From the NCBI GenBank assembly GCA_050951325.1, contig JBMNIW010000008.1, forward strand, positions 96,266-160,265: a DNA stretch of 64,000 bases, in the 5' to 3' direction. The position numbers and the translations under genes are program-made. This document shows positions 3,098 through 62,092 of this stretch, one piece after another. The notes under the pieces are model-generated. The model was not told the origin of the DNA and made no database searches. It was given only the letters and a program-made list of their open reading frames with translations. The first letter of the stretch is position 1. Each line of letters begins with the position of its first letter. The DNA comes from Clostridia bacterium (GTDB lineage: Bacteria > Bacillota > Clostridia > UBA1212 > DUPL01).

Positions 3098-3109
3098 GGG
3101 GAAATAAAA

Positions 3110-4762: not shown

Positions 4763-4777
4763 AAGGAGGGTATTAGA

Positions 4778-6283: not shown

Positions 6284-6293
6284 AGGTAGCTAT

Positions 6294-7913
6294 ATGGATA
6301 AAGTGTATGTGGAAATACTTGACTCAACGCTGCGTGACGGCGCACAGGGAGAAGGAATTTCCTTTTCAGTAAGTGACAAACTGAATATTGTGAAGGCATT
6401 GGACGCCTACGGTGTGGATTACATCGAAGCAGGCAATCCAGGTTCTAATCCAAAGGATTTGGAGTTCTTTGATAAAGTCTCCAAACTAAACCTCAAGAAC
6501 TCCAAACTCTGTGCCTTTGGAGCAACCAGACGCAAAGGAATAAGACCAGAGGAGGACGTAAACATCCAGTCCCTCCTCAAAGCGAACACTCCCGTGGTTG
6601 TAATCTTCGGCAAGTCTTGGGACCTGCATGTAGAAGAAATATTAAAAGCAACCCTTGAGGAAAACCTGGAGATTGTCAAGGATACTGTCGAATATTTGAA
6701 GTCAAAGGGCAAGGAAGTTTTCTTTGATGCAGAACACTTCTTTGACGGATACAGAGCAAACCCAGACTATGCCTTGGCTGTTCTAAAAGCGGCCTTGGAT
6801 GGAGGTGCGGACCTCCTCTGCCTTTGTGATACAAACGGCGGCTGCATGCCCGACTATGTTTATGGTGTCACAAAGAAAGTGAAGGAAACCTTTAAAAATG
6901 CACGTATTGGAATCCACTGCCACAACGACGCAGGTTGTGCCACTGCCAACACAATGCTGGCAGTAAAAGCAGGTGCAACCCATGTCCAAGGCACCTTTAT
7001 TGGGTTTGGTGAAAGATGTGGCAACGCAGACCTAAGCATAATCATACCAAACCTGAAATTAAAATATAACTATGAGTGCAGTGGAAAGCTTGACATGCTT
7101 TACACCATCTCAAGAAGCATAGCTGAAATATCAAACGTGCAAATAGACAGCAACAGGCCTTTCATTGGCTCAAGCGCATTTGCACACAAGGCAGGTATGC
7201 ACATAGACGGGGTATTGAAAATGCCCATGTCTTTTGAGCATATAGATCCACAAGCTGTAGGGAACAAAAGAAAGTTCCTGGCCTCCGAGGTCTCGGGAAG
7301 AGGAGCTATAATTGAAAAGGTTAAAAGCATCTGTCCACACCTGACAAAAGATTGTCCTGAGACCTCCCTTATACTAGAAAAACTGAAAGAGATGGAGCAC
7401 TTTGGCTATCAGTTTGAAGCAGCTGACGCCAGCTTCGAGCTTATGGTAAAGAGGCTTTTAGGTAGTCACAAGTCCCACTTTACCCTTGACTTCTATAAAA
7501 CCATTGGAGAGTTCCCTGCTCCAAATGGCGAAATGCAGTCCTCTGCAACCATAAGGGTAACCGTGGACGGCCAGGAGGAAATGACAGCCTCTATGGGCAA
7601 AGGTCCGGTTCATGCCCTGGATCAGGCTTTAAGAAAAGCCTTGAGTGTATTCTTCCCCGTCATAAAGACTATAAGACTTACAGACTACAAAGTGCGTGTA
7701 CTGGATCAGGAAATGGCCACTGCGGCAAAAGTACGCGTTTTGATTGAGAGCACCGACAACAAACAGACATGGACCTGTGTTGGTGTATCAAATGACATAA
7801 TAGAGGCAAGCTTGATTGCCCTGATAGACTCAATAGAATACAAATTATCATTATGTGAAGAGGAGGAAATAAAGAATGTCTGCAATGACGATGACTCAGA
7901 AAATATTGGCTAA
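6294..7913 (+). CDS. cimA: (R)-citramalate synthase (IPMS/homocitrate synthase family paralog)
   Basis: 539 aa; [17 protein letters not shown]… NPGSNPKD pattern typical of CimA-type paralogs in ilv-leu operons of anaerobes; substrate assignment is by family resemblance only. Confidence 0.65.
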
Positions 7914-9144
7914 ACATGCAAATCTTGATTCAGTGACTGCAGGACAGCTTGTGCTTGTGGACGTGGATATGGTATTGGGAAATGACATTACATCTCCCGT
8001 TGCTATAAATGAATTCAACAAATTGAACCTGGACAAGGTTTTTGACAAGGAAAAAGTAGCGCTTGTTATGGACCACTTTACACCAAACAAGGATATAAAG
8101 GCGGCCGAACAGTGCAGGCAATGCCGTGAGTTTGCCATGGAAATGAACATCACCAATTACTTCGAAGGTGGTAATGTAGGTGTTGAACATGCCCTATTGC
8201 CTGAAAAAGGACTTGTTACCGCCGGTGACTTGGTAATAGGTGCGGACTCCCATACATGTACCTATGGAGCCCTTGGAGCCTTTGCTACTGGTGTAGGTTC
8301 AACTGATATGGCATGTGGCATGGCAACAGGCAAAGCCTGGTTCAAGGTTCCTTCTGCCATCAAGTTTGTACTGACAGGCAAACCAAGCAAGTACTTGATG
8401 GGCAAAGACATAATTCTTCACATAATTGGAATGATTGGTGTTGACGGTGCTTTGTACAGATCCATGGAATTTACAGGCGACGGTCTTAAGTATCTTTCAA
8501 TGAGCGAAAGACTGAGCATGGCAAACATGGCAATTGAAGCTGGTGCAAAGAACGGCATTTTCGAAGTGGACGAAACAACCCTTGAATTCCTCAAGGAAGT
8601 TGGAGCAAAAGAACCAGATGTATACAAGGCAGACGAAGATGCAGAATATGACGAGGTATATACAATAGATCTTTCAAAACTGGGACCTGTTGTGGCCTTC
8701 CCTCACCTGCCAGAAAACACAAAGACATTTGATCAGTTTGATGACATCAAGATTGATCAGGTTGTAATCGGCTCCTGCACAAATGGAAGACTTGAAGACT
8801 TGAAAGTTGCAGCAGAAGTATTAAAGGGAAGAAACGTTGCGAGTCACGTAAGAGCAATCATAATACCAGCAACACCAAAGATCTATCTCGAAGCCCTTGA
8901 AAAGGGTTACCTGAAGATATTCATGGATGCAGGATGCGTGGTCTCCGCTCCAACCTGCGGACCATGTCTTGGTGGACACATGGGAATCCTTGCAAAAGGA
9001 GAAAGAGCGGTTGCTACAACCAACAGGAACTTCGTAGGTAGAATGGGTCATGTTGAATCCGAAGTATATCTTGCAAGCCCTTATGTGGCTGCTGCCAGTG
9101 CTATCACAGGCAAGATATCTCATCCAAGAGAAGTAATGGAATAG
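7876..9144 (+). CDS. leuC: 3-isopropylmalate dehydratase large subunit
   Basis: 422 aa aconitase-family; cluster-ligand Cys motifs ([16 protein letters not shown]); overlaps cimA 3' end; strong RBS GAGGAGGAAA. Confidence 0.9.
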
Positions 9145-9160
9145 GAAGGAGAGACGAACA

Positions 9161-9658
9161 ATGAATGCTTACGGTAAAGTTATAAAATACGGCGACAATG
9201 TGGATACCGACGTCATTATCCCTGCAAGATACCTTAACACTACTGACAAAAAGGAACTTGCCTCCCACTGCATGGAAGACATTGATCCTGATTTCAAGAA
9301 CAAGGTAGAACCAGGAGACATAATTGTTGCAGGAAGAAACTTTGGATGCGGTTCTTCAAGAGAACATGCCCCAATTGTAATAAAAGAAAGTGGCATTTCA
9401 CTGGTAATTGCAAAAAGCTTTGCCCGCATTTTCTACAGAAATGCAATAAATATCGGGCTTGCAATTATTGAATGTCCGGAATGCATTGATGAAATGGACG
9501 AAGGTGACAAGGTACGTGTCGATTTTGACAAAGGTGAAATCGTCAACGAAACCAAGAACAAAACTTATAAAGCATCTCCCTTCCCTCCTTTTATCCAGAC
9601 CATTATACAAAATGGCGGACTAATAAACTCAATTAAGAACAATGCCTTTGGAGGTTAA
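9161..9658 (+). CDS. leuD: 3-isopropylmalate dehydratase small subunit
   Basis: 165 aa aconitase swivel domain ([14 protein letters not shown]). Confidence 0.9.
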
Positions 9659-9659
9659 C

Positions 9660-10709
9660 ATGGACTTTAGAATTGCATTGATAAAAGGTGACGGCATAGG
9701 TCCTGAAATTGTGGACAGTGCCACCAAAGTACTCGACAAAATCGGCGAAAAGTTTAATCATAAATTCAACTACGTTGATCTTATTGCAGGAGGAGTTGCC
9801 ATAGATAAATATGGCCACCCTCTTCCTGAGGAAACTGTAAAAGAGTGCCTGAAAAGCGACAGCGTTATTCTAGGAGCTGTAGGTGGCCCTAAATGGGACA
9901 ACCTCCCAGGTGAATTAAGACCGGAAAGAGCTCTTCTGGGAGTAAGGAAAGCTTTAAACCTCTACTCCAACCTAAGACCAGCAAAGCTCTACAAGGCTCT
10001 TCAACAGTACTGCCCTCTTAGAACCGCATCAAGCTTTGACATACTAATTGTCAGAGAACTTACAGGCGGCATCTATTTTGGTGAAAGAGGAAGAAGAAAT
10101 ACCGAAAATGGAGTTGAAGCCTACGACACTGAGAGTTACAGTGTAATGGAGATTGAGAGAATAGGAAGAGTTGCTTTTGAAGCTGCAAGAAAAAGAAACA
10201 GAAAACTTACAAGCATAGACAAGGCCAATGTGCTTGAAAGCTCCAGACTTTGGAGAGAAACAATGCACAAACTTAAAGAGGAATACAAGGATGTTGAATA
10301 CAGCGATATGCTGGTAGACAACGCAGCAATGCAGCTTATTCGCGACCCATCCCAGTTTGATGTAATAGTTACCTCCAATATGTTTGGAGACATTCTATCC
10401 GATGAAGCTTCACAGCTTACAGGCTCAATTGGAATGCTTCCATCAGCATCTCTTGGAGAGGGAACACTAGGCCTGTATGAGCCAATACACGGTTCTGCTC
10501 CAGACATTGCAGGCACAAAGAAGGCAAATCCAATTGCCACAATTCTTTCAGCCAGCATGATGCTTAGATACTCTTTCAACCTTATCGAGGAAGCAGACGC
10601 CATAGACAATGCGGTGGAAAAAGCCCTTGATATAGGCTACACCACCAGCGACATAGGCGGCAATCTGAATACAGATGAGGTAACTCAAAAAATAATTGAA
10701 CTTATATAA
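9660..10709 (+). CDS. leuB: 3-isopropylmalate dehydrogenase
   Basis: [14 protein letters not shown]… isocitrate/isopropylmalate dehydrogenase family; ATG at 9660 preceded by GGAGG (longer ORF from 9642 overlaps leuD). Confidence 0.9.
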
Positions 10710-12275: not shown

Positions 12276-12351
12276 TGGTGGGTTGTAAGGAACTCGAATC
12301 CCTGACCCCATGCACGTCAAGCATGTGCTCTACCAGCTGAGCTAACAACCC
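12276..12351 (-). tRNA. tRNA-Val (anticodon GAC)
   Basis: Reverse complement folds as cloverleaf: GGGTTGT acceptor, GCTCAGCTGGTAGAGC D-arm, anticodon loop TTGACGT, GGTTCGAGTCC-like T-arm (GGGATTCGAGTTCC), 3' CCA encoded. Confidence 0.85.
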
Positions 12352-18740: not shown

Positions 18741-18873
18741 GCCAACCCTTATGGGTGTAGCCGGGTCTTACGCAACGCTAGAACGTGAACCCCGTCAGGT
18801 CCGGAAGGAAGCAGCGGTAAGCGTGACCTATCGTGTGCCGTAAGTTTCCCCGGTTACACCCAGTAGGGTTGGC
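18741..18873 (+). ncRNA. ffs: signal recognition particle RNA (4.5S/scRNA)
   Basis: Contains SRP domain IV consensus GTCAGGTCCGGAAGGAAGCAGC flanked by long terminal helix GCCAACCCTTATGGGTGTA/TACACCCAGTAGGGTTGGC; located immediately upstream of dnaX as in other Firmicutes. Confidence 0.75.
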
Positions 18874-28284: not shown

Positions 28285-28845
28285 ATGGATTATGCAAGCA
28301 TTTTGGAGGAAAACTCCATACTGGAGTCAGACAGGCTTATACTAAGACCATTTACAATTCAAGATGTACCTGATGTATATCTTTTTGCAAGAGACGAGGT
28401 TGTGACAAGATACCTGACCTGGCCTCCTCATAAAGACATGTCAGTAACAGAAAAGATGGTCAGGGAAATATACATGAGCAGAAGCGGCATATATGCAATT
28501 GTACTTAAATCAGAGAACAAGTGCATTGGATGCATTGATATACGTCTGGTTCCTGAACACGAAAAAGCAACTTTTGGATATTGTCTCAACAGAGACTACT
28601 GGAATAGAGGTTGCGCAACAGAAGCGCTGGCACTTATACTCGAACTTGCTTTTGCAAAATTAAAATTGAATCGTGTAGAATCCACACACTATGCAGGAAA
28701 TGAAACTTCCGGACGTGTTATGCAAAAATGTGGTATGATATATGAAGGAACAGGTGTTAAAGAGGTTAAAATAAAGGGTGTTTTTCATGATGTAGTTCAT
28801 TATGCAATTTTAAAAGATGATTGGATAAGAAGCAAAAATAGATAA
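28285..28845 (+). CDS. GNAT-family N-acetyltransferase (RimJ/RimL-like)
   Basis: 186 aa; acetyl-CoA binding motif region and C-terminal GNETSGRVMQKCGMIYEG typical of RimJ-like GNATs. Confidence 0.75.
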   Translation: MDYASILEENSILESDRLILRPFTIQDVPDVYLFARDEVVTRYLTWPPHKDMSVTEKMVREIYMSRSGIYAIVLKSENKCIGCIDIRLVPEHEKATFGYCLNRDYWNRGCATEALALILELAFAKLKLNRVESTHYAGNETSGRVMQKCGMIYEGTGVKEVKIKGVFHDVVHYAILKDDWIRSKNR

Positions 28846-29276: not shown

Positions 29277-29774
29277 TCAAAGTTTTTTTCCCAGAATGAC
29301 CAGGTCTCTTCTAACTCCATCAAGAATGGCTATACCAGGCAGAAAACCCCACCTATCAAAACCCAGTCTGGTAAACAGCCGAATGCTCTGTTCGTTGTGT
29401 CCGAAGATAAATCCAAGAACAGTATCTATTCCGAGTCCTGGGCACTCATCCAAAACTTTTTGCAATACCTTTTTACCTATTCCCTGCCCTCTGAAGTTTT
29501 CATGAAGATAAATGCTAATCTCAGCAGTTGCGTTGTATGCCGGCCTTCCATAAAAGGGTTGAAGACTTACCCATCCGCACATTTCACCATCAATCTCAAC
29601 AACCCACAGCGGTCTTTTTTCAGAATTATGTGCATAAAACCAGTCAAGTTTATCTTCGACTGTCACAAATTCAGTATCAGCAGTTACCATTCTGCCTGGA
29701 ATGGTTGAGTTGTATATATCGACTATGTCAGGCAAATCTTCAATTTTTGCTTGCCTTAATGTCATGACTTGCAA
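29277..29774 (-). CDS. GNAT-family N-acyltransferase (phosphinothricin/YncA-like)
   Basis: 165 aa; RGQGIGKKVL motif (Q/RxxGxG/A acetyl-CoA pyrophosphate loop). Confidence 0.75.
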   Translation of the reverse strand: MQVMTLRQAKIEDLPDIVDIYNSTIPGRMVTADTEFVTVEDKLDWFYAHNSEKRPLWVVEIDGEMCGWVSLQPFYGRPAYNATAEISIYLHENFRGQGIGKKVLQKVLDECPGLGIDTVLGFIFGHNEQSIRLFTRLGFDRWGFLPGIAILDGVRRDLVILGKKL

Positions 29775-29796: not shown

Positions 29797-31437
29797 TTAC
29801 ATGTTCAAAGGCGGCTTTACCCATGGATTGGTATTTTCAGTTGCGTAATACATATCGGATAATTCTTTCAACGCCTCCTGGATACGCTGAGATTTTTTTG
29901 GTATAAAGTCATTATGTAAAAGCTCATGATCAATAACCGCACGAAGGTATATAAGCCGCCATTTAAACGACGACCCGATCTCTTCAGTCAGCAATTCATT
30001 CCAGTTTGTTATTATTTCATATACATACTCTATACTGCCAGTATCAGCTATATCATAATGCATGACCTTTCCGTCACTGTAGCTCTGGCGGTAAAGAAAG
30101 TCTTCAGTCCGAATAATCGCATCCACCAATAACTCATCCTCACACAAAAACTCATGTTTAACATATCCTCTTACAGCATCCACTGCATTATCATATAGCC
30201 CGCTATATAACGACAAAATAACCCACTTGTTCAAGTCCTCAAAGATGCCTTCTGAATAAGGGAAACCGCCGTGAAACATTCCTTTGGTCCCCTCGTAGGT
30301 TTGCTGAAGAAACCTGGTTAATGGATTTGCTCCAAAACCTCCCCAGGGAGAACATAAATGCATGCTTATTTCAGGAAAATCAATGAATTTTACTTTTTCA
30401 AGAATTCCCGAGTTCCTAACACATTCAGGAACATCACCATAGTGGAAAAAGGACATGATATATGAAACAGAATCCAACTCATTCCTTGCAAGCAGATTGC
30501 AAAGCTCTTCCCATTCACCGTCTAAAAAATGGTCAAAAAGCCAAGTTGACAGAATAATTTCCGTCTGCGGCATAATTTCCTTAACCAGACTGCAAAAATG
30601 AGGATATATTTTCAAAAAGCCGTTAACACCCCAGGGCTCACAGTCTTTACAGGTACAACCTCCCTGATCATAAGGCCAGTATACAATGTATGACAGCTGA
30701 ATATCTGAAAAAACTTCAAGAACCTGCCTTCTGCTTCTCAAGATTTCGTCAACACCACCCTTTTTGGAAGGACATATCTCAACATTGTAGTGACCGCAGA
30801 GCTCCTGTTTGTATCTGCCCTGAACATGCCAGTTGGCACGAAGGTGTTCAGGGGAAGACGCAAAAGCTTCATTGGCTATCATGAGCATTGCCGCCTTAAT
30901 TCCAATCCTTTGTGCATAGTGCAATATTTCTTTAAGCCTGTTAATCATTTCCACAGACTCTGGCTGCTCAATCGAATTATAATGGTGCATGTCATACCAG
31001 ACAAGCAAAGTGTTGCAGCCCCTAAAAGCAAGTTCCTCAATTATATCATATATTTTTTCTATAGGTGCCTTGTGATAAAAGTTTTCAAAATGAGTTGCAA
31101 AATACATTCCACGAACAGAACTACTGGGAGTAAAATCAATTTGACCGACGAATGGAGAAAAGTCGCCCAAACCACTAAACTTGCTTTCCAAAAAGAAACG
31201 GGAAACTGCTGCATGGACTGTACAATCATTGGCTGCTTTTATCTCTGCATGCGTGTTGTATGAGTTAATAACATACCTGTCATCCTTTAAATCGGCATTG
31301 ACACAAACCTTAATTGCATATCCCTCTTCTTCAGAAAGAATGCACCTGCGTTCCGTCAAGAACCTTCGTACCGCTCTTGATAGGATACAAAAGCTTAATT
31401 CGTTCATATTTTCATTAATCAATCTTAATTTACACAT
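29797..31437 (-). CDS. hypothetical Cys-rich soluble enzyme (possibly glycoside-hydrolase-like)
   Basis: 546 aa; conserved-looking cluster GGCTCKDCEPWG and CPSKKGG; no family assigned. Confidence 0.35.
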   Translation of the reverse strand: MCKLRLINENMNELSFCILSRAVRRFLTERRCILSEEEGYAIKVCVNADLKDDRYVINSYNTHAEIKAANDCTVHAAVSRFFLESKFSGLGDFSPFVGQIDFTPSSSVRGMYFATHFENFYHKAPIEKIYDIIEELAFRGCNTLLVWYDMHHYNSIEQPESVEMINRLKEILHYAQRIGIKAAMLMIANEAFASSPEHLRANWHVQGRYKQELCGHYNVEICPSKKGGVDEILRSRRQVLEVFSDIQLSYIVYWPYDQGGCTCKDCEPWGVNGFLKIYPHFCSLVKEIMPQTEIILSTWLFDHFLDGEWEELCNLLARNELDSVSYIMSFFHYGDVPECVRNSGILEKVKFIDFPEISMHLCSPWGGFGANPLTRFLQQTYEGTKGMFHGGFPYSEGIFEDLNKWVILSLYSGLYDNAVDAVRGYVKHEFLCEDELLVDAIIRTEDFLYRQSYSDGKVMHYDIADTGSIEYVYEIITNWNELLTEEIGSSFKWRLIYLRAVIDHELLHNDFIPKKSQRIQEALKELSDMYYATENTNPWVKPPLNM

Positions 31438-31620
31438 TCCTCTCCTTGTACCCCGGTAAATTCTTGTATTTTAAAACATTATATCAATCGCAACCCAAAT
31501 TAACAACAATATCAAAACTAGCATAAAGCAAAACCCACCCCCATGTGGGAGGGTAGGTTTTTAGGGATTGATTTAAATAATTGGATAAATAACATATCCA
31601 TGAGCCTGTTTTAGATTTTC

Positions 31621-32106
31621 TTACTCATAATCCTTGTAAAACAAAGCTCTTATGTATCCTCTGTCTTCGCTGGTTGAATGGATGTAAAACCCGCAGCCAT
31701 AATAGAATCTGACCAAGGCGGTATACTTGGAAGCTGCATGCAGCATTGCCCTTTTTACTCCCTTTGACATGAGGAGTTTGTCCACCAGATTCATAAAAGA
31801 CTTGCCTATACCAATATTCTGGTACCCTCTGCAAACACCAAACCTGCTAATATATGCAGTCCTCTTCTCTTTATTAATATCCACCCGGATGCTGCCAACC
31901 GGAACTCCATCCACAAAGCAGATATAGACATACTTGTTGACAATATCGTTGTATATGTCTTCATACGTCTCTTCCAACGCTTCCATGCTTCCCTCAAGAT
32001 TTGTGTCAAGCTTGTACTTTTCAAAAGCATCAATCATTACAGACCTGATTGCATTTACATCTTCCTCTGTTGGTTTTGCCCTTCTAATTATTAACGAGTA
32101 ATCCAT
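31621..32106 (-). CDS. GNAT-family acetyltransferase translationally coupled to argF
   Basis: 161 aa; RGYQNIGIGKSF acetyl-CoA loop; start overlaps argF stop by 23 nt. Confidence 0.7.
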   Translation of the reverse strand: MDYSLIIRRAKPTEEDVNAIRSVMIDAFEKYKLDTNLEGSMEALEETYEDIYNDIVNKYVYICFVDGVPVGSIRVDINKEKRTAYISRFGVCRGYQNIGIGKSFMNLVDKLLMSKGVKRAMLHAASKYTALVRFYYGCGFYIHSTSEDRGYIRALFYKDYE

Positions 32107-33022
32107 TTCCCATCAACCTAACCATTACAGCTTTTTGTACATGCAGCCTGTTTTCAGCCTCATCAAATACTACAGACTGTTCTCCATCAATGACATCGGA
32201 AGTAACCTCGCTACCCCGGTATGCAGGCAGGCAGTGCATGAAGATCGCATCCTTCTTGCTGTATGAAAAAAGTTCATTGTTTACCTGGTAAGGCATGAAA
32301 ATCCTCTTTCTCTCTTCTTTTTCATCCTCCTGCCCCATGCTTGCCCATGTGTCAGTGTAAACCACATCAGCATCCCTGACAGCCTCAATTGCATCATTGG
32401 TGATGGTGATTACGGAACCGGATTTCTTTGCAATCTCAACAGCCTCATCGATAAATTTCTGTCCGCACTCATAACCTTTGGGTGTTGCCACAGCTATGTT
32501 CATTCCAGTTATGGCACAGCCATGCAAAAGAGAATGAGCCATGTTGTTTCCATCTCCAACGTATGCAAACTTCAGACCTTTTAAAGTTCCTTTTATCTCG
32601 TAGATTGTTTGCAGATCCGCAAGAACCTGGCAGGGATGTTCGTCATCAGTAAGCCCATTAATAACTGGGATGGAGCCAAACCTTGCCAGTTCTTCCACAT
32701 CTGACTGTTTGAATGTCCTGATCATAATACCATCAAGATATCTTGAAAGAACTTTTGCAGTATCTTCAATGGTTTCTCCCCTGCCTATCTGGATGTCGTT
32801 CTGACTTAAAAACAAAGCATACCCACCGAGCTGATACATTCCAACCTCAAAGGAAACCCTTGTTCTTGTAGAAGACTTTGAAAAAATCATTCCCAAAGTC
32901 TTTCCCTTTAGGTAGTGGTGGGTCCTGCCTTCCTTGTTATCCTTCTTCAACTTTATTGCCAAATCAATAATATCCAGTATCTCTTCCTGAGTTAAATCCT
33001 TCAAACTAAGCAAATGTTTCAT
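32084..33022 (-). CDS. argF: ornithine carbamoyltransferase
   Basis: STRTRVSFE carbamoyl-phosphate motif, HCLP, ~312 aa; ATG 33022 with GAAGGTG RBS. Confidence 0.9.
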   Translation of the reverse strand: MKHLLSLKDLTQEEILDIIDLAIKLKKDNKEGRTHHYLKGKTLGMIFSKSSTRTRVSFEVGMYQLGGYALFLSQNDIQIGRGETIEDTAKVLSRYLDGIMIRTFKQSDVEELARFGSIPVINGLTDDEHPCQVLADLQTIYEIKGTLKGLKFAYVGDGNNMAHSLLHGCAITGMNIAVATPKGYECGQKFIDEAVEIAKKSGSVITITNDAIEAVRDADVVYTDTWASMGQEDEKEERKRIFMPYQVNNELFSYSKKDAIFMHCLPAYRGSEVTSDVIDGEQSVVFDEAENRLHVQKAVMVRLMGNGLLVNN

Positions 33023-33041
33023 AGCGCACCTTCTTTGCAAA

Positions 33042-34226
33042 TTAATTCAGAACATTGTAAAGCGTATCCACAAAACCATCCACATCACTTTCAGTGATAA
33101 TAAGTGGAGGAAGGATTCTTAATGCATTTGCGCCTACACTTCCTATCAAGTAACCCTTCTCAAACATTTTGTTCTTTACATCGGCAGCAATAGGTTCCTT
33201 GAACTCTATAGCAAACATAAGACCAACATTTCGGATTTCCGAAATACAGTCAAGATTCAATCCTTCAATTTTATCTCTAAGGTATTTGCCCATTTCTTCA
33301 GCCTTCCTGGGCATGTCTTCTTCAATTATTGTACTTAACGAGGCCAACGCCGCAGCACAGGCAAGAGGATTTCCTCCAAAAGTGGTTCCATGATCTCCAG
33401 GCTGAAAACCTTTTGCAGCTTCTTCTTTTGCGCAAATAGCACCAATTGGAAAACCATTACCCAACGCTTTTGCAAGAGTAAATATATCGGGTTCAATACC
33501 TACTGTTTCATATGCAAACAGTTTGCCTGTTCTACCTATACCGGTTTGAACTTCGTCAATTATCAAGAAGATTCCGTGTTTGTCGCAAAGCTCTCTTGCA
33601 AATTGTGCATATTCTTTTGTAATGGGATGAACACCACTTTCTCCCTGAACAACTTCCAGCAAAATTGCGCAGGTATTTTCATTCACAGCATTCTCCAATG
33701 CTTCCATATCATTAATTGGTACATGTTTGAAACCTGGAGTAAGGGGTGTGTAAGGTTCTTTGTATTTGTCCTGACCGGTTGCTGTTGCAGTGGTCAATGT
33801 ACGGCCGTGAAATGACTTGTCAAGGCAGACAAACTCATACTTTTGCGGCATTCCTTTTTTCTTAAAGTATGCTCTTGCCAGCTTTATTGCACCTTCATTG
33901 GCTTCTGCTCCCGAGTTGGTAAAAAACACTCTGTCACACACTGAGTTTTTGCATATCATTTGAGCCAAAAGAGCCTGATTTTTAATGTAATAGAGGTTTG
34001 AACAGTGCATGAGTTTTTTCACCTGTTCACATACTGCATTTACTACCTTGGGATGACAGTGTCCAAGAGAGTTTACTGCAATGCCGGAAAAAAAGTCCAC
34101 ATATTTTTTACCAGAAACATCATAGAGGTATATTCCTTCTCCCCTCTCAAAGCACACTTTCGTCCTGCCACCAAATGTGTTCATATAATATTTTTTGTCA
34201 AGTTCAATAATATTCTCAAGAGTCAT
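33042..34226 (-). CDS. argD: acetylornithine aminotransferase (class III PLP)
   Basis: 394 aa; PLP-lysine region LIIDEVQTGIGRTGK…. Confidence 0.9.
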   Translation of the reverse strand: MTLENIIELDKKYYMNTFGGRTKVCFERGEGIYLYDVSGKKYVDFFSGIAVNSLGHCHPKVVNAVCEQVKKLMHCSNLYYIKNQALLAQMICKNSVCDRVFFTNSGAEANEGAIKLARAYFKKKGMPQKYEFVCLDKSFHGRTLTTATATGQDKYKEPYTPLTPGFKHVPINDMEALENAVNENTCAILLEVVQGESGVHPITKEYAQFARELCDKHGIFLIIDEVQTGIGRTGKLFAYETVGIEPDIFTLAKALGNGFPIGAICAKEEAAKGFQPGDHGTTFGGNPLACAAALASLSTIIEEDMPRKAEEMGKYLRDKIEGLNLDCISEIRNVGLMFAIEFKEPIAADVKNKMFEKGYLIGSVGANALRILPPLIITESDVDGFVDTLYNVLN

Positions 34227-34237
34227 GAAACCACCTT

Positions 34238-35140
34238 CTATTCATTAATAATCATTGTTCCGATACCCTTGTGGGTGAATATCTCAAGCAAGAGGCAGTG
34301 AGGTATTCTTCCATCAATGATATGTGTTGCCAAAACTCCGTTTCTGATGGCTTCAACACAACCCAGTACCTTTGGAATCATTCCGCTGGTTATAATTCCT
34401 TCATCTATAAGTTGATACACTTCTTCAACAGTCAAAAACTCCAGAAGCTCATTTGTCCTGCTGTTTATTACACCTTCCGTATCGGTAAGAAGAATGAGTT
34501 TCTCAGCCTTCATGGCAATTGCCACCTCACTGGCTACAGTATCCGCATTGATATTGTAGCTGTGACCGTCAGGTCCTATCCCAATAGGAGCAATGACAGG
34601 AATGTATTCATCAGACGCAAGAAGTTCAATCATTTCAGTGTTTACCTTGGTTATCTCGCCAACGTAACCAATGTCTGTTTGTACGCCGTTTACAGTCTCA
34701 AAGTGTTTTCTGCATTCTATCAAACGACCGTCAAGGCCACTCAAACCTGCAGCCTTTCCACCCTTTTCATTAATGTTTTTGACAATCTCCTTGTTGGTCT
34801 TGCCCACCAGCACCATTTGTGCCACATCCATTGTAAAGCTGTCAGTGACACGCAAACCGTTTACAAACTCGCTCTTTACATCAAACTTCTTCAAGGTGCT
34901 GCTTATGTCAGGACCTCCACCATGAACAATAATTGGTTTCATGCCAATATACTTTAGAAGAACTATATCCTGCATTACAAGATTCTTAAGTTCCTCGTTG
35001 ACCATGGCATTGCCACCGTATTTTACAACCACGGACTTGCCATAAAACTTCTGTATGTATGGCAGTGCTTCAACAAGTACTTCCGCTTTTTTTATAAACT
35101 CATCATATTTTACTGTATTTGGTTCACTCAATTTAAACAC
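34238..35140 (-). CDS. argB: acetylglutamate kinase
   Basis: 300 aa amino-acid kinase family (VVKYGGNAM…HGGGP). Confidence 0.9.
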
Positions 35141-35146
35141 TCCTTA

Positions 35147-36097
35147 TCACAGACACTTATACGCCGGCTCAATACCATTAAATCTTGGCAAACCAAGCAT
35201 TAAATTCATGTTTTCTACCGCCTGGGATGCGGCACCTTTACCCAAGTTATCAACCAGAGAGTTGATATATGCATGACCGTCATCCACTCTAACCTTTACA
35301 ACAAGTCTGTTGGTGTTATTGATATCCTTTGTGCCATACGACTTTTCAGCCGTATCTCTAACTACAAACACCAAATCCTCTTCTTCATACGCACTCCTTA
35401 TTCTATCTTCAAGAACCTTTACTGCTTCTTCTTCTGACAATGAAGCAAGGTCATCATTCAATCTCACTCTAATATTGGTGTTAATACCTCTAAAAACGCT
35501 TCTAAGTACAATTGGTGTGAAATTTACAGAAACTCCAGAATATCGTCGCATCTCAGGGACATGCTTGTGTCTTCGTCCAAAGGAGTAAGTAATATCATTA
35601 GATTCGTCCTCAACAGTTCGTCTTGCACCTGAGTTTCCTGATGTTGAAACAACAGTTGCCTCTCCAACTATTAGGTCCTGTATTGGGTGTAATGGAAGAA
35701 TTACGCTGGTTGGATAACAACCCGGGTTTGCAACCAGATTAGCATCCTTTATTCTCTCTTTGAATAGAGCAGGCATTCCATAAACAGCCTCTTCCAACAA
35801 CTCAGGTTTCGCATGCTCCATGCCATACCACTTTTCAAACTCCTCTACACTAAGTCTGAAAGCACCACTCATATCAATAACCCTGAGTCCCAAACTTCTC
35901 ATTTCCTCAGCATTCATCATGCTTTCCTTGTCTCTGGTTGCCAGGAATACGACGTCGCAGTCTTTTGCATTTCCAATTCTTTCGCTGGAATTCATTCTGA
36001 ATGCGATTTTTAACTCCTTGTTGTTCTCCTGTTCAATTATCCTCGTCAATTCCTGACCGACCATTCCTGTAAATCCTACAATTCCAACGTAATACAT
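35147..36097 (-). CDS. argC: N-acetyl-gamma-glutamyl-phosphate reductase
   Basis: 316 aa; NAD-binding GFTGMVGQEL and catalytic Cys in LVANPGCYPT. Confidence 0.85.
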   Translation of the reverse strand: MYYVGIVGFTGMVGQELTRIIEQENNKELKIAFRMNSSERIGNAKDCDVVFLATRDKESMMNAEEMRSLGLRVIDMSGAFRLSVEEFEKWYGMEHAKPELLEEAVYGMPALFKERIKDANLVANPGCYPTSVILPLHPIQDLIVGEATVVSTSGNSGARRTVEDESNDITYSFGRRHKHVPEMRRYSGVSVNFTPIVLRSVFRGINTNIRVRLNDDLASLSEEEAVKVLEDRIRSAYEEEDLVFVVRDTAEKSYGTKDINNTNRLVVKVRVDDGHAYINSLVDNLGKGAASQAVENMNLMLGLPRFNGIEPAYKCL

Positions 36098-36279
36098 AGA
36101 AATCCTCCAATAAAAAATATAACTAACCCAAGTTTTACTTTACTTAGGTGAATTATCATATTATTATACATATGTCAGTTACAATATGCAACAAATACAA
36201 GAAAAGAAAAAGTATACAGTTCTGTAAACTTTCTGAGAATAAATAACAAATGGCTCAAGCATCCGTATATAAGAAAAGA

Positions 36280-36969
36280 TCAGCCCTTTTTCAAAAACTC
36301 TTCTTTCATTCCATCCATTCTTTTCTTAACAAAAACCATTGCCAAAACACATATTAGAATCGAGATCAAGGAAAGAACCAAAAATGAAGTAAATACCATC
36401 ATACTGCTTTTACTTAATGCAATAAAAGCAATAATCATAAAAAGCAATACAACATCAAAGCATACGGCTATACTTGAACATCTAAAATCTGTATAGCACC
36501 TCATAAAATCATGCACATTCTGTGCAACCTCGTACCTTTCGATGTTCATAAGACTTGGAAACTGAAGGCTTGGTTTTACCCATGCTTTCTGCTTTTTGTC
36601 ATACTCAGCCTTCTGGTACACAAAGCCAATCTCCGTATCCCCATCTAAATCCACAGCTATTTTCTGAGAAACAAGGTACGGATTTAGTTTCTTCAGCAGT
36701 TTCGCATCTCCAAAGGAAGAAAAAATTTTTATTAACCCAATAACAGGAAGAAGCAGTATATTCAATATCTTCTTAAACTTTGTCAATTCTTCCTCCTTGG
36801 GAATCTGAACAATCTCCAGTTCAAAGGTGCCCTTTTTTTCAAACTTGAAAGACGCCTTTGGATTATTCTCTGTAACAACCTTGGTTTTACCCATAAAATT
36901 CACATTGAATCCAACCGGTGCTGCACCATCATATTTCATTACTACATCAAGTACCACGACAATTACCAC
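36280..36969 (-). CDS. hypothetical membrane protein (soluble N-domain, 2 C-terminal TM)
   Basis: 229 aa; last gene of AmmeMemoRadiSam-containing operon. Confidence 0.35.
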   Translation of the reverse strand: MVIVVVLDVVMKYDGAAPVGFNVNFMGKTKVVTENNPKASFKFEKKGTFELEIVQIPKEEELTKFKKILNILLLPVIGLIKIFSSFGDAKLLKKLNPYLVSQKIAVDLDGDTEIGFVYQKAEYDKKQKAWVKPSLQFPSLMNIERYEVAQNVHDFMRCYTDFRCSSIAVCFDVVLLFMIIAFIALSKSSMMVFTSFLVLSLISILICVLAMVFVKKRMDGMKEEFLKKG

Positions 36970-36991: not shown

Positions 36992-38305
36992 TTATGTCAC
37001 ATAATGTTTATTGAATATTGCCCTCATCTCATCAACTTTTCCTGCTGCTATGATATAGCTGTATTCAAAAGGTTCAAAAGATTTAAGCTCAAAGGTTCTC
37101 AAGGGAGCAACATAGCTGGTTGATGGAGCGTAAGAGCTCTTGCTCCTGTCCGCCATATAAATGCCTGCAAGCAATATTTCCGTATCGGCAGCATAAAGAC
37201 CTATACCGTAGTGATCTTTATCAACCCATGCACACCATACTTCTGTATTACCTTCCTTGACTCTGAAATATGCATCCTTGTTGTTAGCCCAGAAAGGTAG
37301 ATTTTCTTTGTATGTCAGCGCATCGTTTGTCCAAGGATTGTTTCCATTGTAAAAGACAAAGGTGTCAAGATAACTGATTACATAGAACGCAGGCATTTCC
37401 TGATGTCTTGGCTTTGCCTTGTATCCTGAGAAGTCAACAAACCTGTTGGATACCTTTATACATTCTTTTTCAATGGAATACTCATTTTCCATATAACATA
37501 TTGTATACTCTGCCTGCTTTGCCCAGTCCCTGGGTCTGCATTTTATGTATATTCTGTCTTCTTCAATCTTGAAATCAACTATCTTGCTCTCATTGCCATA
37601 CATGTCTCCTCCCTGAACCGGATTGTATGGCCAGCGCGCTCCATTGTACGTTCCTGGTTCATATGGTTTTTCTCCTGTTCCGTAATATGCCTGCTGAACC
37701 AGCCTGCCTGTGTCATGCCTGTTTAGAAGATTCGTTATTGACTCATCCTTGTTCTTTTTGTCTTCAATATAATTAAGACTTCCACCCCAAAGCAAATCAA
37801 CACCAACCTTGTAGCGACTGTTCTCAATAAATACGGTGGTTTTAGGTACCTTTACCTTTAATATTTCGACATTCTTCAACTTAAACTCGCAAGATACGTC
37901 CTTTAAGACTGTCAAAGTTATCTTTTTTATACTCTTAGCCGTTTTCCCCGCAAAGAATCCGTCAATCAAGGATGAGAAAGCCATATCCTTGCCAGGTTCA
38001 AGAAAAAAAACTTCTTCGTATTCCTTATTCAACATATACGTTACTTTTCCTTTTATGTACCCTGTGGAATCGTAATATATACTGAACTTGTTAAACTCCA
38101 TTTCCTTGTCAAGCAGAATCTCAAAATTATCTTTAATTGTGTATACACCATCTTTATAAGTCACGTAATTTCTAAACTGCATAACTTTGACCATACTCCT
38201 CCCCAATACATCCTTGTCACCCATATCACAAAAAACCAAAACAAAACACAATGGTATCAACATTAGGCTCAGATATCTCAATCTCCACACTCCCAAACTC
38301 AACAA
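36992..38305 (-). CDS. hypothetical secreted/envelope protein
   Basis: 437 aa; N-terminal hydrophobic signal-like segment; start overlaps radical SAM gene stop by 7 nt (coupled). Confidence 0.35.
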   Translation of the reverse strand: MLSLGVWRLRYLSLMLIPLCFVLVFCDMGDKDVLGRSMVKVMQFRNYVTYKDGVYTIKDNFEILLDKEMEFNKFSIYYDSTGYIKGKVTYMLNKEYEEVFFLEPGKDMAFSSLIDGFFAGKTAKSIKKITLTVLKDVSCEFKLKNVEILKVKVPKTTVFIENSRYKVGVDLLWGGSLNYIEDKKNKDESITNLLNRHDTGRLVQQAYYGTGEKPYEPGTYNGARWPYNPVQGGDMYGNESKIVDFKIEEDRIYIKCRPRDWAKQAEYTICYMENEYSIEKECIKVSNRFVDFSGYKAKPRHQEMPAFYVISYLDTFVFYNGNNPWTNDALTYKENLPFWANNKDAYFRVKEGNTEVWCAWVDKDHYGIGLYAADTEILLAGIYMADRSKSSYAPSTSYVAPLRTFELKSFEPFEYSYIIAAGKVDEMRAIFNKHYVT

Positions 38306-39129
38306 TTCCCCTCATAAACGTAATTCAAATGCTTCCTTGCCAGTTTTGCAAGCTTGTACACGTCTTCAACAGGAGTAGGATTCTTGTCAAGAAGCTGATA
38401 CCTGGGAAAGAATCTTGATACGTGAAGAGGAATATTTTTATCAATTTCACTCAACCAGGAAGCAAGCTCTTCCATTTCCTCCTCACTGTCATTCTCCCCC
38501 GGTATTATCAAAGTCGTAACTTCCACATGAGAATATTGGGCTGCAATCTTTATGGTGTTCTTGACAGTTTCCAAATCTCCTTTGACTTTCCTATAGAATT
38601 CATTAGAAAAAGCCTTCAGGTCAATGTTGAAAGCATCGATGTATTCAATAATGTCCAGCAAAGGCTCTTCATTGATATATCCATTCGTTACAACACAGTT
38701 GTAAAGACCTTTATCTTTTACAAGTCTTGCACAGTCCCTTACATACTCATATCCCACCAAAGGTTCGTTGTAGGTAAATGCAATACCGATATTGCCCATG
38801 GCAACTGTATCAACCGCATAGGATAAGAGACTTTCAGGCTCAATGTATTCAAACCTGGCAAGCTCCTTATCACTCATGGATATGGAGTGATTCTGACAGT
38901 GACTACACCTTAGATTACAGCCAAAACTGCCTACTGACAATATCTTTGCTCCGGGATGAAACTGGTACAAAGGTTTTTTCTCTATAGGGTCTAAAGCAAG
39001 TGATGTGACACAGCCATAGTTGATGCTGGTTACCACACCATCCACATTGCCTCTTGCATTACAAAACCCAATCCCGCCTTCCTTTATGGTGCACTGTCTT
39101 GGACATATGTTACAAGTCGCCAACCTCAT
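38299..39129 (-). CDS. AmmeMemoRadiSam system radical SAM enzyme (PFL-activase-like)
   Basis: CNLRCSHC (CX3CX2C) SAM-cluster motif, DPIEKKPLYQFHPG block, 276 aa; overlaps upstream fused A/B gene. Confidence 0.7.
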   Translation of the reverse strand: MRLATCNICPRQCTIKEGGIGFCNARGNVDGVVTSINYGCVTSLALDPIEKKPLYQFHPGAKILSVGSFGCNLRCSHCQNHSISMSDKELARFEYIEPESLLSYAVDTVAMGNIGIAFTYNEPLVGYEYVRDCARLVKDKGLYNCVVTNGYINEEPLLDIIEYIDAFNIDLKAFSNEFYRKVKGDLETVKNTIKIAAQYSHVEVTTLIIPGENDSEEEMEELASWLSEIDKNIPLHVSRFFPRYQLLDKNPTPVEDVYKLAKLARKHLNYVYEGNC

Positions 39130-40507
39130 GCCTTACAACCTCAAACCTTTCTATTGTGTAGTCCTCATGGGAACCAATACCTGCTTTTCCAAGCGCAATT
39201 TCAAGCTGCTCCTCCACAGTGTCAACTCCGTCGAGATTTGGAAGCAACAGTCCCCTTCTGTATCCCTTTGTAACTATAACGCCATACTTATTAGGGTCCA
39301 GTTCAAGTTTGGATTGAACCTTCTCCACTTTTCCAAGAACATCAACACTGTAAGTTATATATGGGAGCTCCTCTTCAGTAACAGGGTCAAACCTTGGATC
39401 TTTAGAACATGCACTTATCGCATTCCTAATAATCTCCTCAGCGATATTTCTACACACAGGTTCAATAGTACCAATACATCCTCTCAGCTTCCCATTGATT
39501 TTAAGGGTGACAAAAGTCCCTGCTCTTCTTTCAAGAAGTTCTTTACTCAAATCATCAGGCATTTCCAAAACCTTTTTGGTTCTTGTGTAAAGCTCTATTG
39601 ATTTTCTAGCTAAAGATATATACGCGTCCTCTTTGCCCCTTGCTTTTTTCATTTTCTCTTCCATCTCATCCAGTGCTCTTTTGGCAAAATCACGCACATC
39701 ATCACTGCCTGCAGCCTCGTAAGCACAGACTGCATAACCAACACCAAAAGGTCCTTCGTACGACATAAAAGCAGGCTTTACGTTCCTTTTATCGAAGCAA
39801 CCTGCCAGGATGTTAAAGGACTGCAGACCGCACTGGGCAGCTCTTTCACATCTTTCTTCGTTTATGGTAAGGAGCTTAAGAAAATCAGCTTTCCTCATCG
39901 CATCAGTGATGTCCTTGTCAAATTTGGGACCTTCCTCGTCATAGCCATATGGACCGGATGCCACAAGTTTATGTGACAAATCACCACTGGCAACAAAAAC
40001 GCAATTTCTTCCCAGCTTTGAAACTGCTCTATTTATGCTTTTCCCAAGGTTGTAATGGGTTATTGAAGACAAACCGGATATGGAGATCCTGACAAGCTTG
40101 TAATTGGTATAGTGTTTGTTTATGAAATACAAAGGAACCATTGCACCGTGGTCAAGCTCTTTGTTCCTTTCACCCAACGTACCTGCAGGGATGTCCTCTT
40201 CAAAGGCAAAATCTGAAATTGCCTTTACAAGCTCCTCATCATACTCAACTTTGAAGAAAACATCTCTTACACCAAAATTTGAAAAACTCCCCGCCGCACT
40301 CTTTCCCGGAGAAATGTGAATATAGTCGGAGTAAACCGTTGAATGAGGTGTTGAAATGATTATGGTTTCAGGCTGGATTTCTTTTATCATCCTTGCCACA
40401 CTCATGAATGCATCAATCGTATTCTGAATTTCCCTTTCTCTTCCCTTCCCTACCTCATGTATTGCAATTGGTGGATGGGGTACAATAAAACCGTAGTTTA
40501 TAGCCAT
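39110..40507 (-). CDS. fusion protein: LigB/Memo-like (AmmeMemoRadiSam protein B) N-domain + AMMECR1 (protein A) C-domain
   Basis: N-term GFIVPHPP… extradiol-dioxygenase class III/Memo fold; C-term LRGCIGTIEP AMMECR1 signature. Confidence 0.7.
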   Translation of the reverse strand: MAINYGFIVPHPPIAIHEVGKGREREIQNTIDAFMSVARMIKEIQPETIIISTPHSTVYSDYIHISPGKSAAGSFSNFGVRDVFFKVEYDEELVKAISDFAFEEDIPAGTLGERNKELDHGAMVPLYFINKHYTNYKLVRISISGLSSITHYNLGKSINRAVSKLGRNCVFVASGDLSHKLVASGPYGYDEEGPKFDKDITDAMRKADFLKLLTINEERCERAAQCGLQSFNILAGCFDKRNVKPAFMSYEGPFGVGYAVCAYEAAGSDDVRDFAKRALDEMEEKMKKARGKEDAYISLARKSIELYTRTKKVLEMPDDLSKELLERRAGTFVTLKINGKLRGCIGTIEPVCRNIAEEIIRNAISACSKDPRFDPVTEEELPYITYSVDVLGKVEKVQSKLELDPNKYGVIVTKGYRRGLLLPNLDGVDTVEEQLEIALGKAGIGSHEDYTIERFEVVRHEVGDL

Positions 40508-43958: not shown

Positions 43959-44435
43959 TTATAACCTGTATTCCATTTTGTAGCACTGTATTTCCATGCC
44001 CTGTTTTTTGTAAAACTCTATTGCCCTATCATTGAAACTCCATACGTTGAGCTCAATGTTGTAACATCCACACTCTCGTGCAAATTCTACACTGTGGGCA
44101 AAGAGCTTATTGCCGATTCCAGTATTTCTGAAATTTTCATCGATACACAAATCGTCAATATACAGTGTTTTAAAGTTTCTAAAAAGGGATGCCGTTCTCT
44201 GGTCAATGATATAGCTGAACAGGTATCCAAGGACATAGTCATTCTCGTCCACTGCAACGAATACCGCCCTGTCCTCTTCATAAAGGATGTCTCTAACCTC
44301 GTGAGCAGAATACTTCTTTCGACCTTCTCTGAAAAGATCTGGCCTTCCTTTATGATGTTCATTGGCAATAACTTTGAGTAATGCAACTATCCTGTCTATA
44401 TCCTTCTCTTCTGCCCTTCTAACGCTAATCTCCAT
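43959..44435 (-). CDS. GNAT-family acetyltransferase
   Basis: 158 aa; FRNTGIGNKLF acetyl-CoA loop. Confidence 0.7.
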   Translation of the reverse strand: MEISVRRAEEKDIDRIVALLKVIANEHHKGRPDLFREGRKKYSAHEVRDILYEEDRAVFVAVDENDYVLGYLFSYIIDQRTASLFRNFKTLYIDDLCIDENFRNTGIGNKLFAHSVEFARECGCYNIELNVWSFNDRAIEFYKKQGMEIQCYKMEYRL

Positions 44436-58951: not shown

Positions 58952-59839
58952 CTAAATTAAACGTGCTCCCAAATTCTCAAGATACCTTTTAGCCTCCAAG
59001 AGATCCTCCTGGTCAGGAACCCACTCTTTTCTACCATTATCCGCATAACCCAACTGTTCACTCTTTGATCCTCCGTAAGTATGATACGGTATCAGCTCAA
59101 CCCCCCTTGCATTCCCAAGGCATCCATAAACTTCGGCAATGAACTCATAGTTGACCTTGTCCATATTGACCCCCTTGACCATAATACATCTTAGTACTGT
59201 CTCTACCTTGTAACTGTCTAGTAGCCAAAGGTTTTTCAATATCCTCTCATAGCCAACACCGGTGTTTTCCTTGTGCCTGTCTTCATTCCCATCCTTCAAG
59301 TCAAACAAGACCAAATCCGCCACCCTTGCAAGTGATGGAACAATATCAGAATCAAAATATCCGCTTGTTTCAACACATGTTGTTATACCGGCCCGTTTTG
59401 CCTTGGAAAGCAGTTCAATAGAAAACTCCTCATTCACTAGCGGTTCGCCACCCGACAGAGTTATGCCACCCATGTCACCGAAAAAATCCCTGTCCTTCAA
59501 AACCTCACCCAACACATCGTCAACAGTCATATCAGTTGCCACCTGTTCAATGGCCTTCGCAGGACAGACCTTCGCACACGAAAGACAAAGCACGCACTTG
59601 TCCCTATGATAATTATGCTCCATGCCATCAAACACATGAGCACTTTTTTCACATATTTTTTCACACATACGACAATGAATGCAGAAATTCTTCACATACA
59701 ATATTTCATTATTCGGCTTAATGCATTCAGGATTGTGGCACCATACGCAGTTCAAAGGACATCCCTTTAAAAATACTGTAGTTCTTACTCCATCGCCATC
59801 ATGAATTGAAAACCTTTGTATGTTCGTAATCAAAGCCAT
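58952..59839 (-). CDS. glycyl-radical-enzyme activating enzyme (radical SAM, with two extra ferredoxin-like Cys clusters)
   Basis: IQRFSIHDGDGVRTTVFLKGCPLNCVWCHN (CX3CX2C) plus CIHCRMCEKIC and CVLCLSCAKVCP clusters; ATG 59839 two nt after GRE stop. Confidence 0.85.
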   Translation of the reverse strand: MALITNIQRFSIHDGDGVRTTVFLKGCPLNCVWCHNPECIKPNNEILYVKNFCIHCRMCEKICEKSAHVFDGMEHNYHRDKCVLCLSCAKVCPAKAIEQVATDMTVDDVLGEVLKDRDFFGDMGGITLSGGEPLVNEEFSIELLSKAKRAGITTCVETSGYFDSDIVPSLARVADLVLFDLKDGNEDRHKENTGVGYERILKNLWLLDSYKVETVLRCIMVKGVNMDKVNYEFIAEVYGCLGNARGVELIPYHTYGGSKSEQLGYADNGRKEWVPDQEDLLEAKRYLENLGARLI

Positions 59840-59841
59840 TT

Positions 59842-61944: not shown

Positions 61945-62092
61945 AAATACCACCTTTTAAATCTTCCACTATATATTATCACAGAAAAGTGACATTGTCA
62001 CAGAACTTTTTTTGATATGTACATATAATAGCTGTGGAACTGCTCTTTTCATATTTATATATGTATCCTCCATTAATAGATCATATATATTG

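Follow-up and report, generated by a model that had tools for sequence, protein, structure and literature searches.

Here we describe an arginine biosynthesis operon of a Clostridia bacterium that ends in a small gene for a GNAT-type acetyltransferase, a candidate N-acetylglutamate synthase (NAGS). The stretch of DNA analysed, hereafter the window, comprises 64,000 nt of GenBank assembly GCA_050951325.1 (contig JBMNIW010000008.1, positions 96,266 to 160,265 of the forward strand), and its features are collected in Table 1. The original prediction had described an argC-argB-argD-argF operon lacking argJ, with a 161-aa GNAT gene on the same strand starting within the last 23 nt of argF, and this description proved right when open reading frames (ORFs) and matches to hidden Markov models (HMMs) were inspected. 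As the gaps between the genes of the operon are only 1-11 nt, there is no space for argJ between argC and argB, and as a terminator-like hairpin follows the GNAT gene, the latter is the final gene of the operon. Its ATG start codon is backed by an N-terminal alignment of 20 homologues, all of which open with M-[DN]-[YF]-S-F-I-I-R; furthermore, on metagenome contigs that encode an identical protein, independent gene calls give the same start and the same overlap with argF. This overlap is consistent with the GNAT being produced together with ArgF in the window species.

Table 1. Location and properties of the arginine operon and of other features in the 64,000-nt window
Feature	Position	Strand	Properties
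argC	35147-36097	-	316 aa; TIGR01850 219 bits (cutoff 233.6, just below); PF01118 and PF22698; GCYPT motif
argB	34238-35140	-	N-acetylglutamate kinase, predicted arginine-sensitive hexameric type; TIGR00761 257 bits; gene-caller start 35131
argD	33042-34226	-	Acetylornithine aminotransferase; TIGR00707 500 bits, PF00202 406 bits
argF	32084-33040	-	Ornithine carbamoyltransferase; NF001986 474 bits (cutoff 306), TIGR00658 461 bits (cutoff 281); gene-caller start 33022
GNAT gene	31621-32106	-	Candidate N-acetylglutamate synthase; 161 aa, single domain; PF00583 48.8 bits (cutoff 20.7)
Overlap of argF 3′ end and GNAT 5′ end	32084-32106	-	23 nt, different frames; consistent with translational coupling
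Intrinsic terminator-like hairpin	31530-31561	-	13-bp stem, then T-run; 3′ of GNAT
Promoter-like hexamer pairs	36155-36239	-	5′ of argC; consensus matches alone
Further GNAT gene	28285-28845	+	
Further GNAT gene	29277-29774	-	ArsN1a model 120 bits (cutoff 170)
Further GNAT gene	43959-44435	-	
Flanking gene	29797-31437	-	546 aa; no Pfam/NCBIfam match
Flanking gene	36280-36969	-	229 aa; no Pfam/NCBIfam match
Flanking gene	36992-38305	-	437 aa; no Pfam/NCBIfam match
AmmeMemoRadiSam system	38299-40507	-	Radical SAM protein (TIGR04337, 263 bits); fused AmmeMemoRadiSam A, LigB/Memo, AMMECR1 protein
Branched-chain amino-acid cluster	248-10709	+	Acetolactate synthase, ilvC, ilvD, two LeuA/CimA-type synthases, leuC, leuD, leuB
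Glycyl-radical enzyme with radical SAM activase	58952-61953	-	Pyruvate formate-lyase-like, 703 aa
Small signal recognition particle RNA	18759-18858	+	Rfam, 74 bits
tRNA gene	12279-12351	-	Rfam

A first protein search with the GNAT returned 574 homologues at E ≤ 0.001, and the 120 that were listed have identities of 58-98 % and lengths of 148-176 aa, except for one fragment of 109 aa. A sample of 21 family members contains 46 invariant columns, and the public names of members are generic ('GNAT family N-acetyltransferase', 'RimI-like' or 'YhbS'). Scanning GTDB with one genome per species revealed at least 486 relatives, the nearest of which is found in a digester metagenome-assembled genome (MAG), JAAYLF01, at 98 % identity; the best 80 belong to Acetivibrio, Ruminiclostridium, Pseudobacteroides, Anaerobacterium and many Oscillospiraceae or 'Bacillota' MAGs. 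The member from Clostridium thermocellum is 61 % identical and is the last gene of an argC-argB-pilZ-argD-carA-carB-argF-GNAT operon. We inspected the best 80 of the at least 486 loci over 10 kb on each side of the GNAT, 79 of which contain a complete GNAT ORF. In 76 of these 79, argF lies immediately 5′ of the GNAT in the same orientation, the median distance between the two being 30 nt, whilst the three exceptions comprise one gap of 468 nt and two contigs that end just 5′ of the GNAT; as the arrangement is repeated in so many species-level loci, it is not due to chance. Clustering of the ORFs from all 80 loci recovered argC in 61, argB in 63, a PilZ-like gene (223 aa) in 39, argD in 69, carA in 54, carB in 58, argF in 77 and the GNAT in 75, with no further family recurring. 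These operons look like the classical Firmicute arrangement, argC-argJ-argB-argD-(carAB)-argF, minus argJ and with the GNAT appended after argF.

The composition of the related operons varies around this core. In 39 of the 80 loci, the PilZ-domain gene (∼223 aa) separates argB from argD (in C. thermocellum at positions 2241-2903 of locus L001). It places a receptor domain of the c-di-GMP type within an arginine operon, an oddity of these relatives that the window does not share. Most related operons also contain carA-carB between argD and argF, and these genes are missing from the window clade (also from L010-L013, L084 and L089). The window ArgC scores below the cutoff of its family model despite the presence of both semialdehyde dehydrogenase Pfam domains and of the active-site motif. 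It is short compared with the ∼346 aa of its C. thermocellum counterpart, and its N-terminal 40 residues align poorly. This short type is confined to the nearest relatives (L010-L015, L084 and L089), whose proteins score 369-657 bits against the window ArgC, compared with 55-130 bits for the standard ArgC of the remaining GNAT-bearing operons.

The association with arginine genes extends well beyond these close relatives. When 1.84 billion cluster representatives were searched with a profile, the wider family proved to be graded, with 68 clusters at E ≤ 1e-30, 262 at E ≤ 1e-10 and 2234 at E ≤ 1e-3; the best 150 representatives include no fusion, all being ≤ 224 aa. Genomic context for distant relatives comes from 14 loci, the metagenome scan having been queried with a single protein, and within this sample every distant relative (∼30-55 % identity) with retrievable context sits in an arg cluster. 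The architectures are argC-argB-GNAT with abutting stop and start codons (L092-L095, from a Firmicute-like organism of 52 % GC), argC-argB-argD-GNAT (L105), argD-argF-GNAT (L098, L101 and L104), argG-argH...argD-argF-GNAT (L099), argD-carA-carB-argF-GNAT (L100) and a bare argF-GNAT pair (L103 and L106).

Within 250 nt 5′ of argC, ARG-box-like sites (TGMATWWWWATKCA, with two mismatches at most) were found in 46 of 53 relatives, often in tandem with a spacing of 20 nt, where 0.17 would be expected per region. No Rfam match to a riboswitch or leader RNA was found 5′ of the window argC.

Given that adjacency can last by inertia within one clade, and that the members of the family are known from context alone, the GNAT might have an unrelated housekeeping role and simply be carried along with argF by inherited gene order. 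We consider this very improbable. Linkage to arg genes persists from 98 % down to ∼31 % identity with differing neighbours, which argues against plain inheritance of gene order; there are five different architectures, some of them without argF; the genes are translationally coupled or abutting; and ArgR-type operators lie 5′ of the operons. The claim that the GNAT is tied functionally to arginine synthesis was therefore borne out by synteny, both in the 76 argF-GNAT loci and in the other arg architectures, and on the strength of gene arrangement a role of the GNAT in arginine biosynthesis appears very well supported.

The protein itself is readily recognized as a member of the GNAT superfamily (PF00583). 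Its AlphaFold2 model (predicted local distance difference test score 89.7) adopts the standard GNAT fold, and the acetyl-CoA pyrophosphate loop, Q96-N-I-G-I-G101 (pattern Q/R-x-x-G-x-G/A), is intact, with G99 and G101 invariant in an alignment of 21 sequences. A Foldseek search with the model yielded 787 GNAT matches in the PDB at E ≤ 1e-3, the nearest solved structures being uncharacterised GNATs, PaiA, ArsN, PAT/BAR, SpeG and similar proteins at 13-22 % identity. No NAT domain of a NAGS was present among the top 50 Foldseek PDB matches, nor was any NAGS chain among the matches of a PDB sequence search. The fold search, performed with a predicted model, is uninformative beyond the designation 'GNAT'.

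Neither the classical ArgA models (TIGR01890 and NF003641) nor those of short NAGS proteins (NF005921 and NF005840) matched the window GNAT at E ≤ 10, and the C. thermocellum orthologue reached 22 bits on NF005840 (cutoff 154); TIGR01890 and NF003641 do match the window ArgB, through its kinase domain only. The best NCBIfam match of the window GNAT is to a streptothricin acetyltransferase model and is weak (39 bits), whilst the RimI model gives 17 bits (cutoff 86). As a 161-aa single-domain protein without an amino-acid-kinase domain, the GNAT does not have the make-up of a classical ArgA; nor is it of the ArgJ type (PF01960, with an autoproteolytic ATML site), having no PF01960 match. Judged by these models, the GNAT is outside every characterised NAGS family that could be compared by HMM. 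The analogy that the original prediction had drawn with mycobacterial short NAGS enzymes consequently stands in kind, as both are small single-domain GNATs, but does not extend to family membership. Glutamate-binding residues are not conserved even among the recognized NAGS classes (PMC4490483), and so no motif can decide the acceptor of the GNAT. Among members at 28-41 % identity, the residues kept are Y31, E46, R74, R88, G101, Y135, G139, Y151, R153 and K158 (window numbering), and of these the basic R74, R88, R153 and K158, together with Y31, E46, Y135 and Y151, would suit an acidic amino-acid acceptor.

Alongside the GNAT are encoded the kinase, reductase, transaminase and ornithine carbamoyltransferase (OTC) of the pathway, as well as carbamoyl-phosphate synthase in many relatives. 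Two steps have no gene in the operon, namely the formation of N-acetylglutamate and the removal of the acetyl group from N-acetylornithine. The first of these suits a GNAT whose acetyl-CoA site is intact, since no pathway reaction other than that of NAGS depends on acetyl-CoA; the second does not suit a GNAT. Small GNAT-type NAGS proteins in or near arg clusters have precedents in ArgO, S-NAGS, the C-NAGS of Corynebacterium and the predicted ArgA2 and ArgA4 (PMC4490483; PMC3827942; PMC9026213). NAGS is thus the most economical assignment, and we hold with moderate confidence that the GNAT N-acetylates L-glutamate from acetyl-CoA (EC 2.3.1.1) in an anaplerotic role, with argJ located elsewhere in the genome. 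The same degree of confidence applies jointly to the view that the family is a distinct, unnamed one devoted to the making of arginine in Clostridia, with members in Acetivibrio, Ruminiclostridium, Pseudobacteroides and lineages of the Oscillospiraceae type. Under this scheme, the GNAT would make the first N-acetylglutamate from acetyl-CoA and feed the co-transcribed ArgB, ArgC and ArgD, after which an unlinked ArgJ, acting as ornithine acetyltransferase, would recycle the acetyl group of N-acetylornithine; alternatively, the window lineage may run a linear pathway with an ArgE-type deacetylase. That the GNAT supplies the first step of ornithine synthesis, as originally proposed, thereby remains the best single guess, with strong arg linkage behind it, whilst glutamate as the acceptor, the anaplerotic role and an ArgJ elsewhere in the genome are inferred.

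A number of observations weigh against this assignment. Members are known from gene context alone and carry generic public names throughout; NCBIfam, PDB and top-50 Foldseek comparisons gave no specific sequence or fold likeness to a characterised NAGS; and the closest solved structures belong to generic GNATs, PaiA and ArsN/PAT-type enzymes. In most clades the constant partner is argF, which encodes the OTC of a late step, and not argB or argC. A separate NAGS would be redundant if the unlinked ArgJ were bifunctional, and a curated mcSEED table gives no 'ArgA4' role to the gene beside argF in Acetivibrio clariflavus (PMC9026213). Furthermore, the window argC leader (36098-36300, minus strand) contains no ARG box with fewer than four mismatches; ArgR may no longer control the operon in the window species, or a different operator may be in use.

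Several of these points can be read in favour of a different substrate. The GNAT might acetylate some other small molecule linked to the pathway, such as ornithine, citrulline, arginine, glutamate-5-semialdehyde or a toxic analogue of glutamate or ornithine, and so be a salvage, overflow or protective enzyme. We regard this as unlikely, albeit a possibility to be taken seriously, given that argF is the most constant neighbour even where it forms a bare pair with the GNAT, that ArsN, PAT/BAR and the tabtoxin-resistance enzymes among the fold neighbours acetylate amino-acid antimetabolites, that the polyamine acetyltransferases PaiA and SpeG are also found there, and that the weak top NCBIfam match is a streptothricin acetyltransferase. 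However, in some clades the GNAT follows argB or argD and argF is not in the vicinity, fold matches of 13-22 % identity are common to GNATs in general, and the known pathway requires a NAGS and no such extra reaction. A second reading, which we judge improbable, is that the GNAT regulates an arginine enzyme, e.g. OTC or N-acetylglutamate kinase (NAGK), by acetylating protein lysines or N-termini. Annotation pipelines name members 'RimI-like', Naa50 and the protein acetyltransferase HP0935 occur among the sequence and fold neighbours, and the coupling to argF is tight; yet the RimI score lies far below its cutoff, a small acidic ligand would be a better fit for the conserved basic and aromatic residues of the pocket, and arginine synthesis offers no precedent for a dedicated protein acetyltransferase encoded in the operon.

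The neighbours ArgF and ArgB bear on whether the GNAT would act beside an ArgJ or in place of one. ArgF scores well above the cutoffs of both OTC models and carries the SMG and HCLP motifs; by these measures it is a canonical OTC and needs free ornithine. Since it is canonical, an ornithine acetyltransferase (ArgJ) or a deacetylase (ArgE) must be encoded elsewhere. We also considered ArgF as an acetylornithine carbamoyltransferase, with which no prior deacetylation would be needed, and rejected this on its score with NF003384 (191 bits against a cutoff of 288). The best PDB matches of ArgB are 2bty, 2jj4 and 2buf (315, 312 and 302 bits, respectively), with alignments starting at residues 10-19, compared with 94 bits and an alignment from residue 37 onward for E. 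coli 1gs5. ArgB has an N-terminal extension helix (EALPYI...) and is closest to the Thermotoga, Synechococcus and Pseudomonas kinases, which places it in the hexameric, arginine-inhibited class of NAGK and makes inhibition by arginine a reasonable expectation. Organisms that recycle the acetyl group typically exert feedback control at this kinase, and the NAGK of E. coli is arginine-insensitive.

We searched for argJ by tblastn, using as queries a synthetic consensus probe built from ArgJ motifs (614 bits on PF01960) and five real ArgJ proteins. As positive controls, the argJ genes of two control operons were found at 416-826 bits. These searches covered the GNAT loci and the window, not whole genomes: no match was obtained in the 64-kb window, the remainder of the operon included, or in 1.74 Mb of GNAT loci plus window, and argJ was found within 10 kb of the GNAT in none of the 80 loci. 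Likewise, when the remaining large ORFs of the window were scanned against Pfam and NCBIfam, no ArgE-like M20 peptidase, argG, argH, argR or carAB was detected. Two typical Firmicute operons retrieved via ArgJ, argC-argJ-argB-argD-argF and argC-argJ-argB-argD-carA-carB, were both without the GNAT. A protein-database search with the ArgJ probe returned matches from thermophilic Firmicutes alone, with none from Acetivibrio or Ruminiclostridium; the literature searched on argJ, NAGS and arg genes of C. thermocellum yielded nothing usable; and the sequence matches of the window itself are metagenome contigs of ≤ 35 kb and one fragmented MAG.

At the level of a whole genome, an unlinked ArgJ is documented by one table row: for A. 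clariflavus (Clostridium clariflavum DSM 19732), the one cultured species of a GNAT-bearing genus covered there, ArgJ appears in the curated mcSEED table of Ashniev et al. as peg.1162, well away from ArgC, ArgB, ArgD and ArgF (peg 508, 507, 505 and 504), with neither ArgE nor 'ArgA4' assigned (PMC9026213, Table S2). As the GNAT directly follows argF in all seven Acetivibrio genomes or MAGs sampled, we infer from these congeners that A. clariflavus carries it too. An ArgJ probably exists elsewhere in GNAT-bearing genomes, including that of the window. The A. clariflavus entry and the arginine-sensitive type of ArgB together suggest an unlinked ArgJ, and for the same reasons it appears more likely that the GNAT primes the pathway as an anaplerotic NAGS than that it alone replaces ArgJ. 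Reading 'lacking argJ' as the GNAT standing in for the whole of ArgJ did not hold up, as the canonical OTC still needs deacetylated ornithine.

A stronger version of that idea is that the GNAT replaces both ArgJ activities, starting the pathway from acetyl-CoA and also moving the acetyl group from N-acetylornithine to glutamate, e.g. through bound CoA, such that neither ArgJ nor ArgE would be needed. Every GNAT-bearing arg cluster examined is without argJ, no deacetylase gene recurs nearby, and the GNAT is often placed with argD and argF, whose enzymes flank the missing step. Amide-to-thioester transfer is, however, energetically unfavourable, and to our knowledge no GNAT performs an acetyl transfer of this kind. 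Moreover, inspection spanned 10 kb per side, a range that an unlinked ArgJ or ArgE would escape, and the curated table lists an unlinked ArgJ for A. clariflavus (PMC9026213). For these reasons we consider a complete replacement of ArgJ quite improbable and retain the view that the GNAT primes the pathway.

Beyond the operon, the window contains three further GNAT genes nearby. One of these, which lies past the operon terminator and beyond the separate 546-aa gene, falls below the cutoff of the ArsN1a (arsinothricin/phosphinothricin N-acetyltransferase) model and weakly touches NF005921 and NF005840. The proteins flanking the operon on either side are without Pfam or NCBIfam matches. The AmmeMemoRadiSam system pairs its radical SAM enzyme with the adjacent fused protein. 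The branched-chain amino-acid cluster suggests a broadly prototrophic organism. A glycyl-radical enzyme with its activase is also encoded, and the signal recognition particle RNA and the tRNA gene are the sole Rfam matches in the window.

The NAGS step has been reinvented several times (ArgA, ArgJ, S-NAGS, ArgO, C-NAGS and ArgA2) and its gene is repeatedly 'missing' from metabolic reconstructions. The GNAT family is spread over several hundred species of Clostridia that are cellulolytic or come from guts or digesters; one of them is C. thermocellum, a model organism for biofuels. Were its members NAGS enzymes, they would constitute another independent sequence class, fill the first step in genome-scale models of these Clostridia and in predictions of their auxotrophies, and offer a handle on the engineering of nitrogen and amino-acid flux. 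The prediction is directly testable, as genetics exist for C. thermocellum.

Amongst established systems, the window GNAT shares only its proposed reaction product, N-acetylglutamate, with classical ArgA (amino-acid kinase plus NAT) and bifunctional ArgJ. It differs from the former in lacking the amino-acid-kinase domain and with it the classical arginine site, and from the latter in its unrelated fold. The short S-NAGS (M. tuberculosis Rv2747 type) and the ArgH-fused H-NAGS are single GNAT domains of 150-180 aa that serve as NAGS where ArgJ only recycles the acetyl group (PMC3827942), and by analogy an S-NAGS-like physiological role is likely for the window GNAT. S-NAGS are mostly encoded away from the arg operon. 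In the window, by contrast, it is the GNAT that belongs to the operon and ArgJ that would be encoded at a distance; the proposed division of labour is hence that of Corynebacterium and Mycobacterium with the linkage reversed.

GNAT-type genes in arg operons, with a first-step function predicted from context, are also known as ArgA2 (Bacteroidetes BT3761, a predicted N-succinylglutamate synthase) and 'ArgA4' of the SEED/mcSEED arginine subsystem (PMC9026213). ArgA2 is paired with a succinyl-specific carbamoyltransferase, ArgF3, whereas the window ArgF is a canonical OTC. ArgA4 is found in arg operons of Clostridia (Ruminococcus and Lachnospiraceae), e.g. argC-argJ-argB-ArgA4-argD-argF in Ruminococcus bromii (PMC9026213); it thus has argJ in cis, which the window family never does, a distinction drawn from the respective descriptions. 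If the two were nonetheless the same family, the prediction would already be present in SEED, though not propagated to A. clariflavus. In the literature searched, we found no publication that names or tests the window family, and Xu et al. (2006) do not mention Clostridia.

By description, the closest analogue in kind is ArgO (O-NAGS) of Campylobacter jejuni, likewise a small single-domain GNAT (146 aa, compared with 161 aa here) from an arg cluster without argJ, argCOBD (PMC4490483). The relationship of ArgO to GNATs is only a broad one, and ArgO does not resemble the NAT domain that classical NAGS proteins carry (PMC4490483); one clade of the window family shares the gene content of its cluster (argC-argB-argD-GNAT). 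The two differ in position, ArgO lying between argC and argB and the window family after argF, argB or argD, as well as in the phylum of the host; moreover, ArgO is described as a NAGS in the literature (PMC4490483; PMC3827942), whilst the window family is known from its genes. Taken together, these comparisons make it likely that the window GNAT represents a new sequence class of small NAGS, one that would be conceptually expected from the precedents above.

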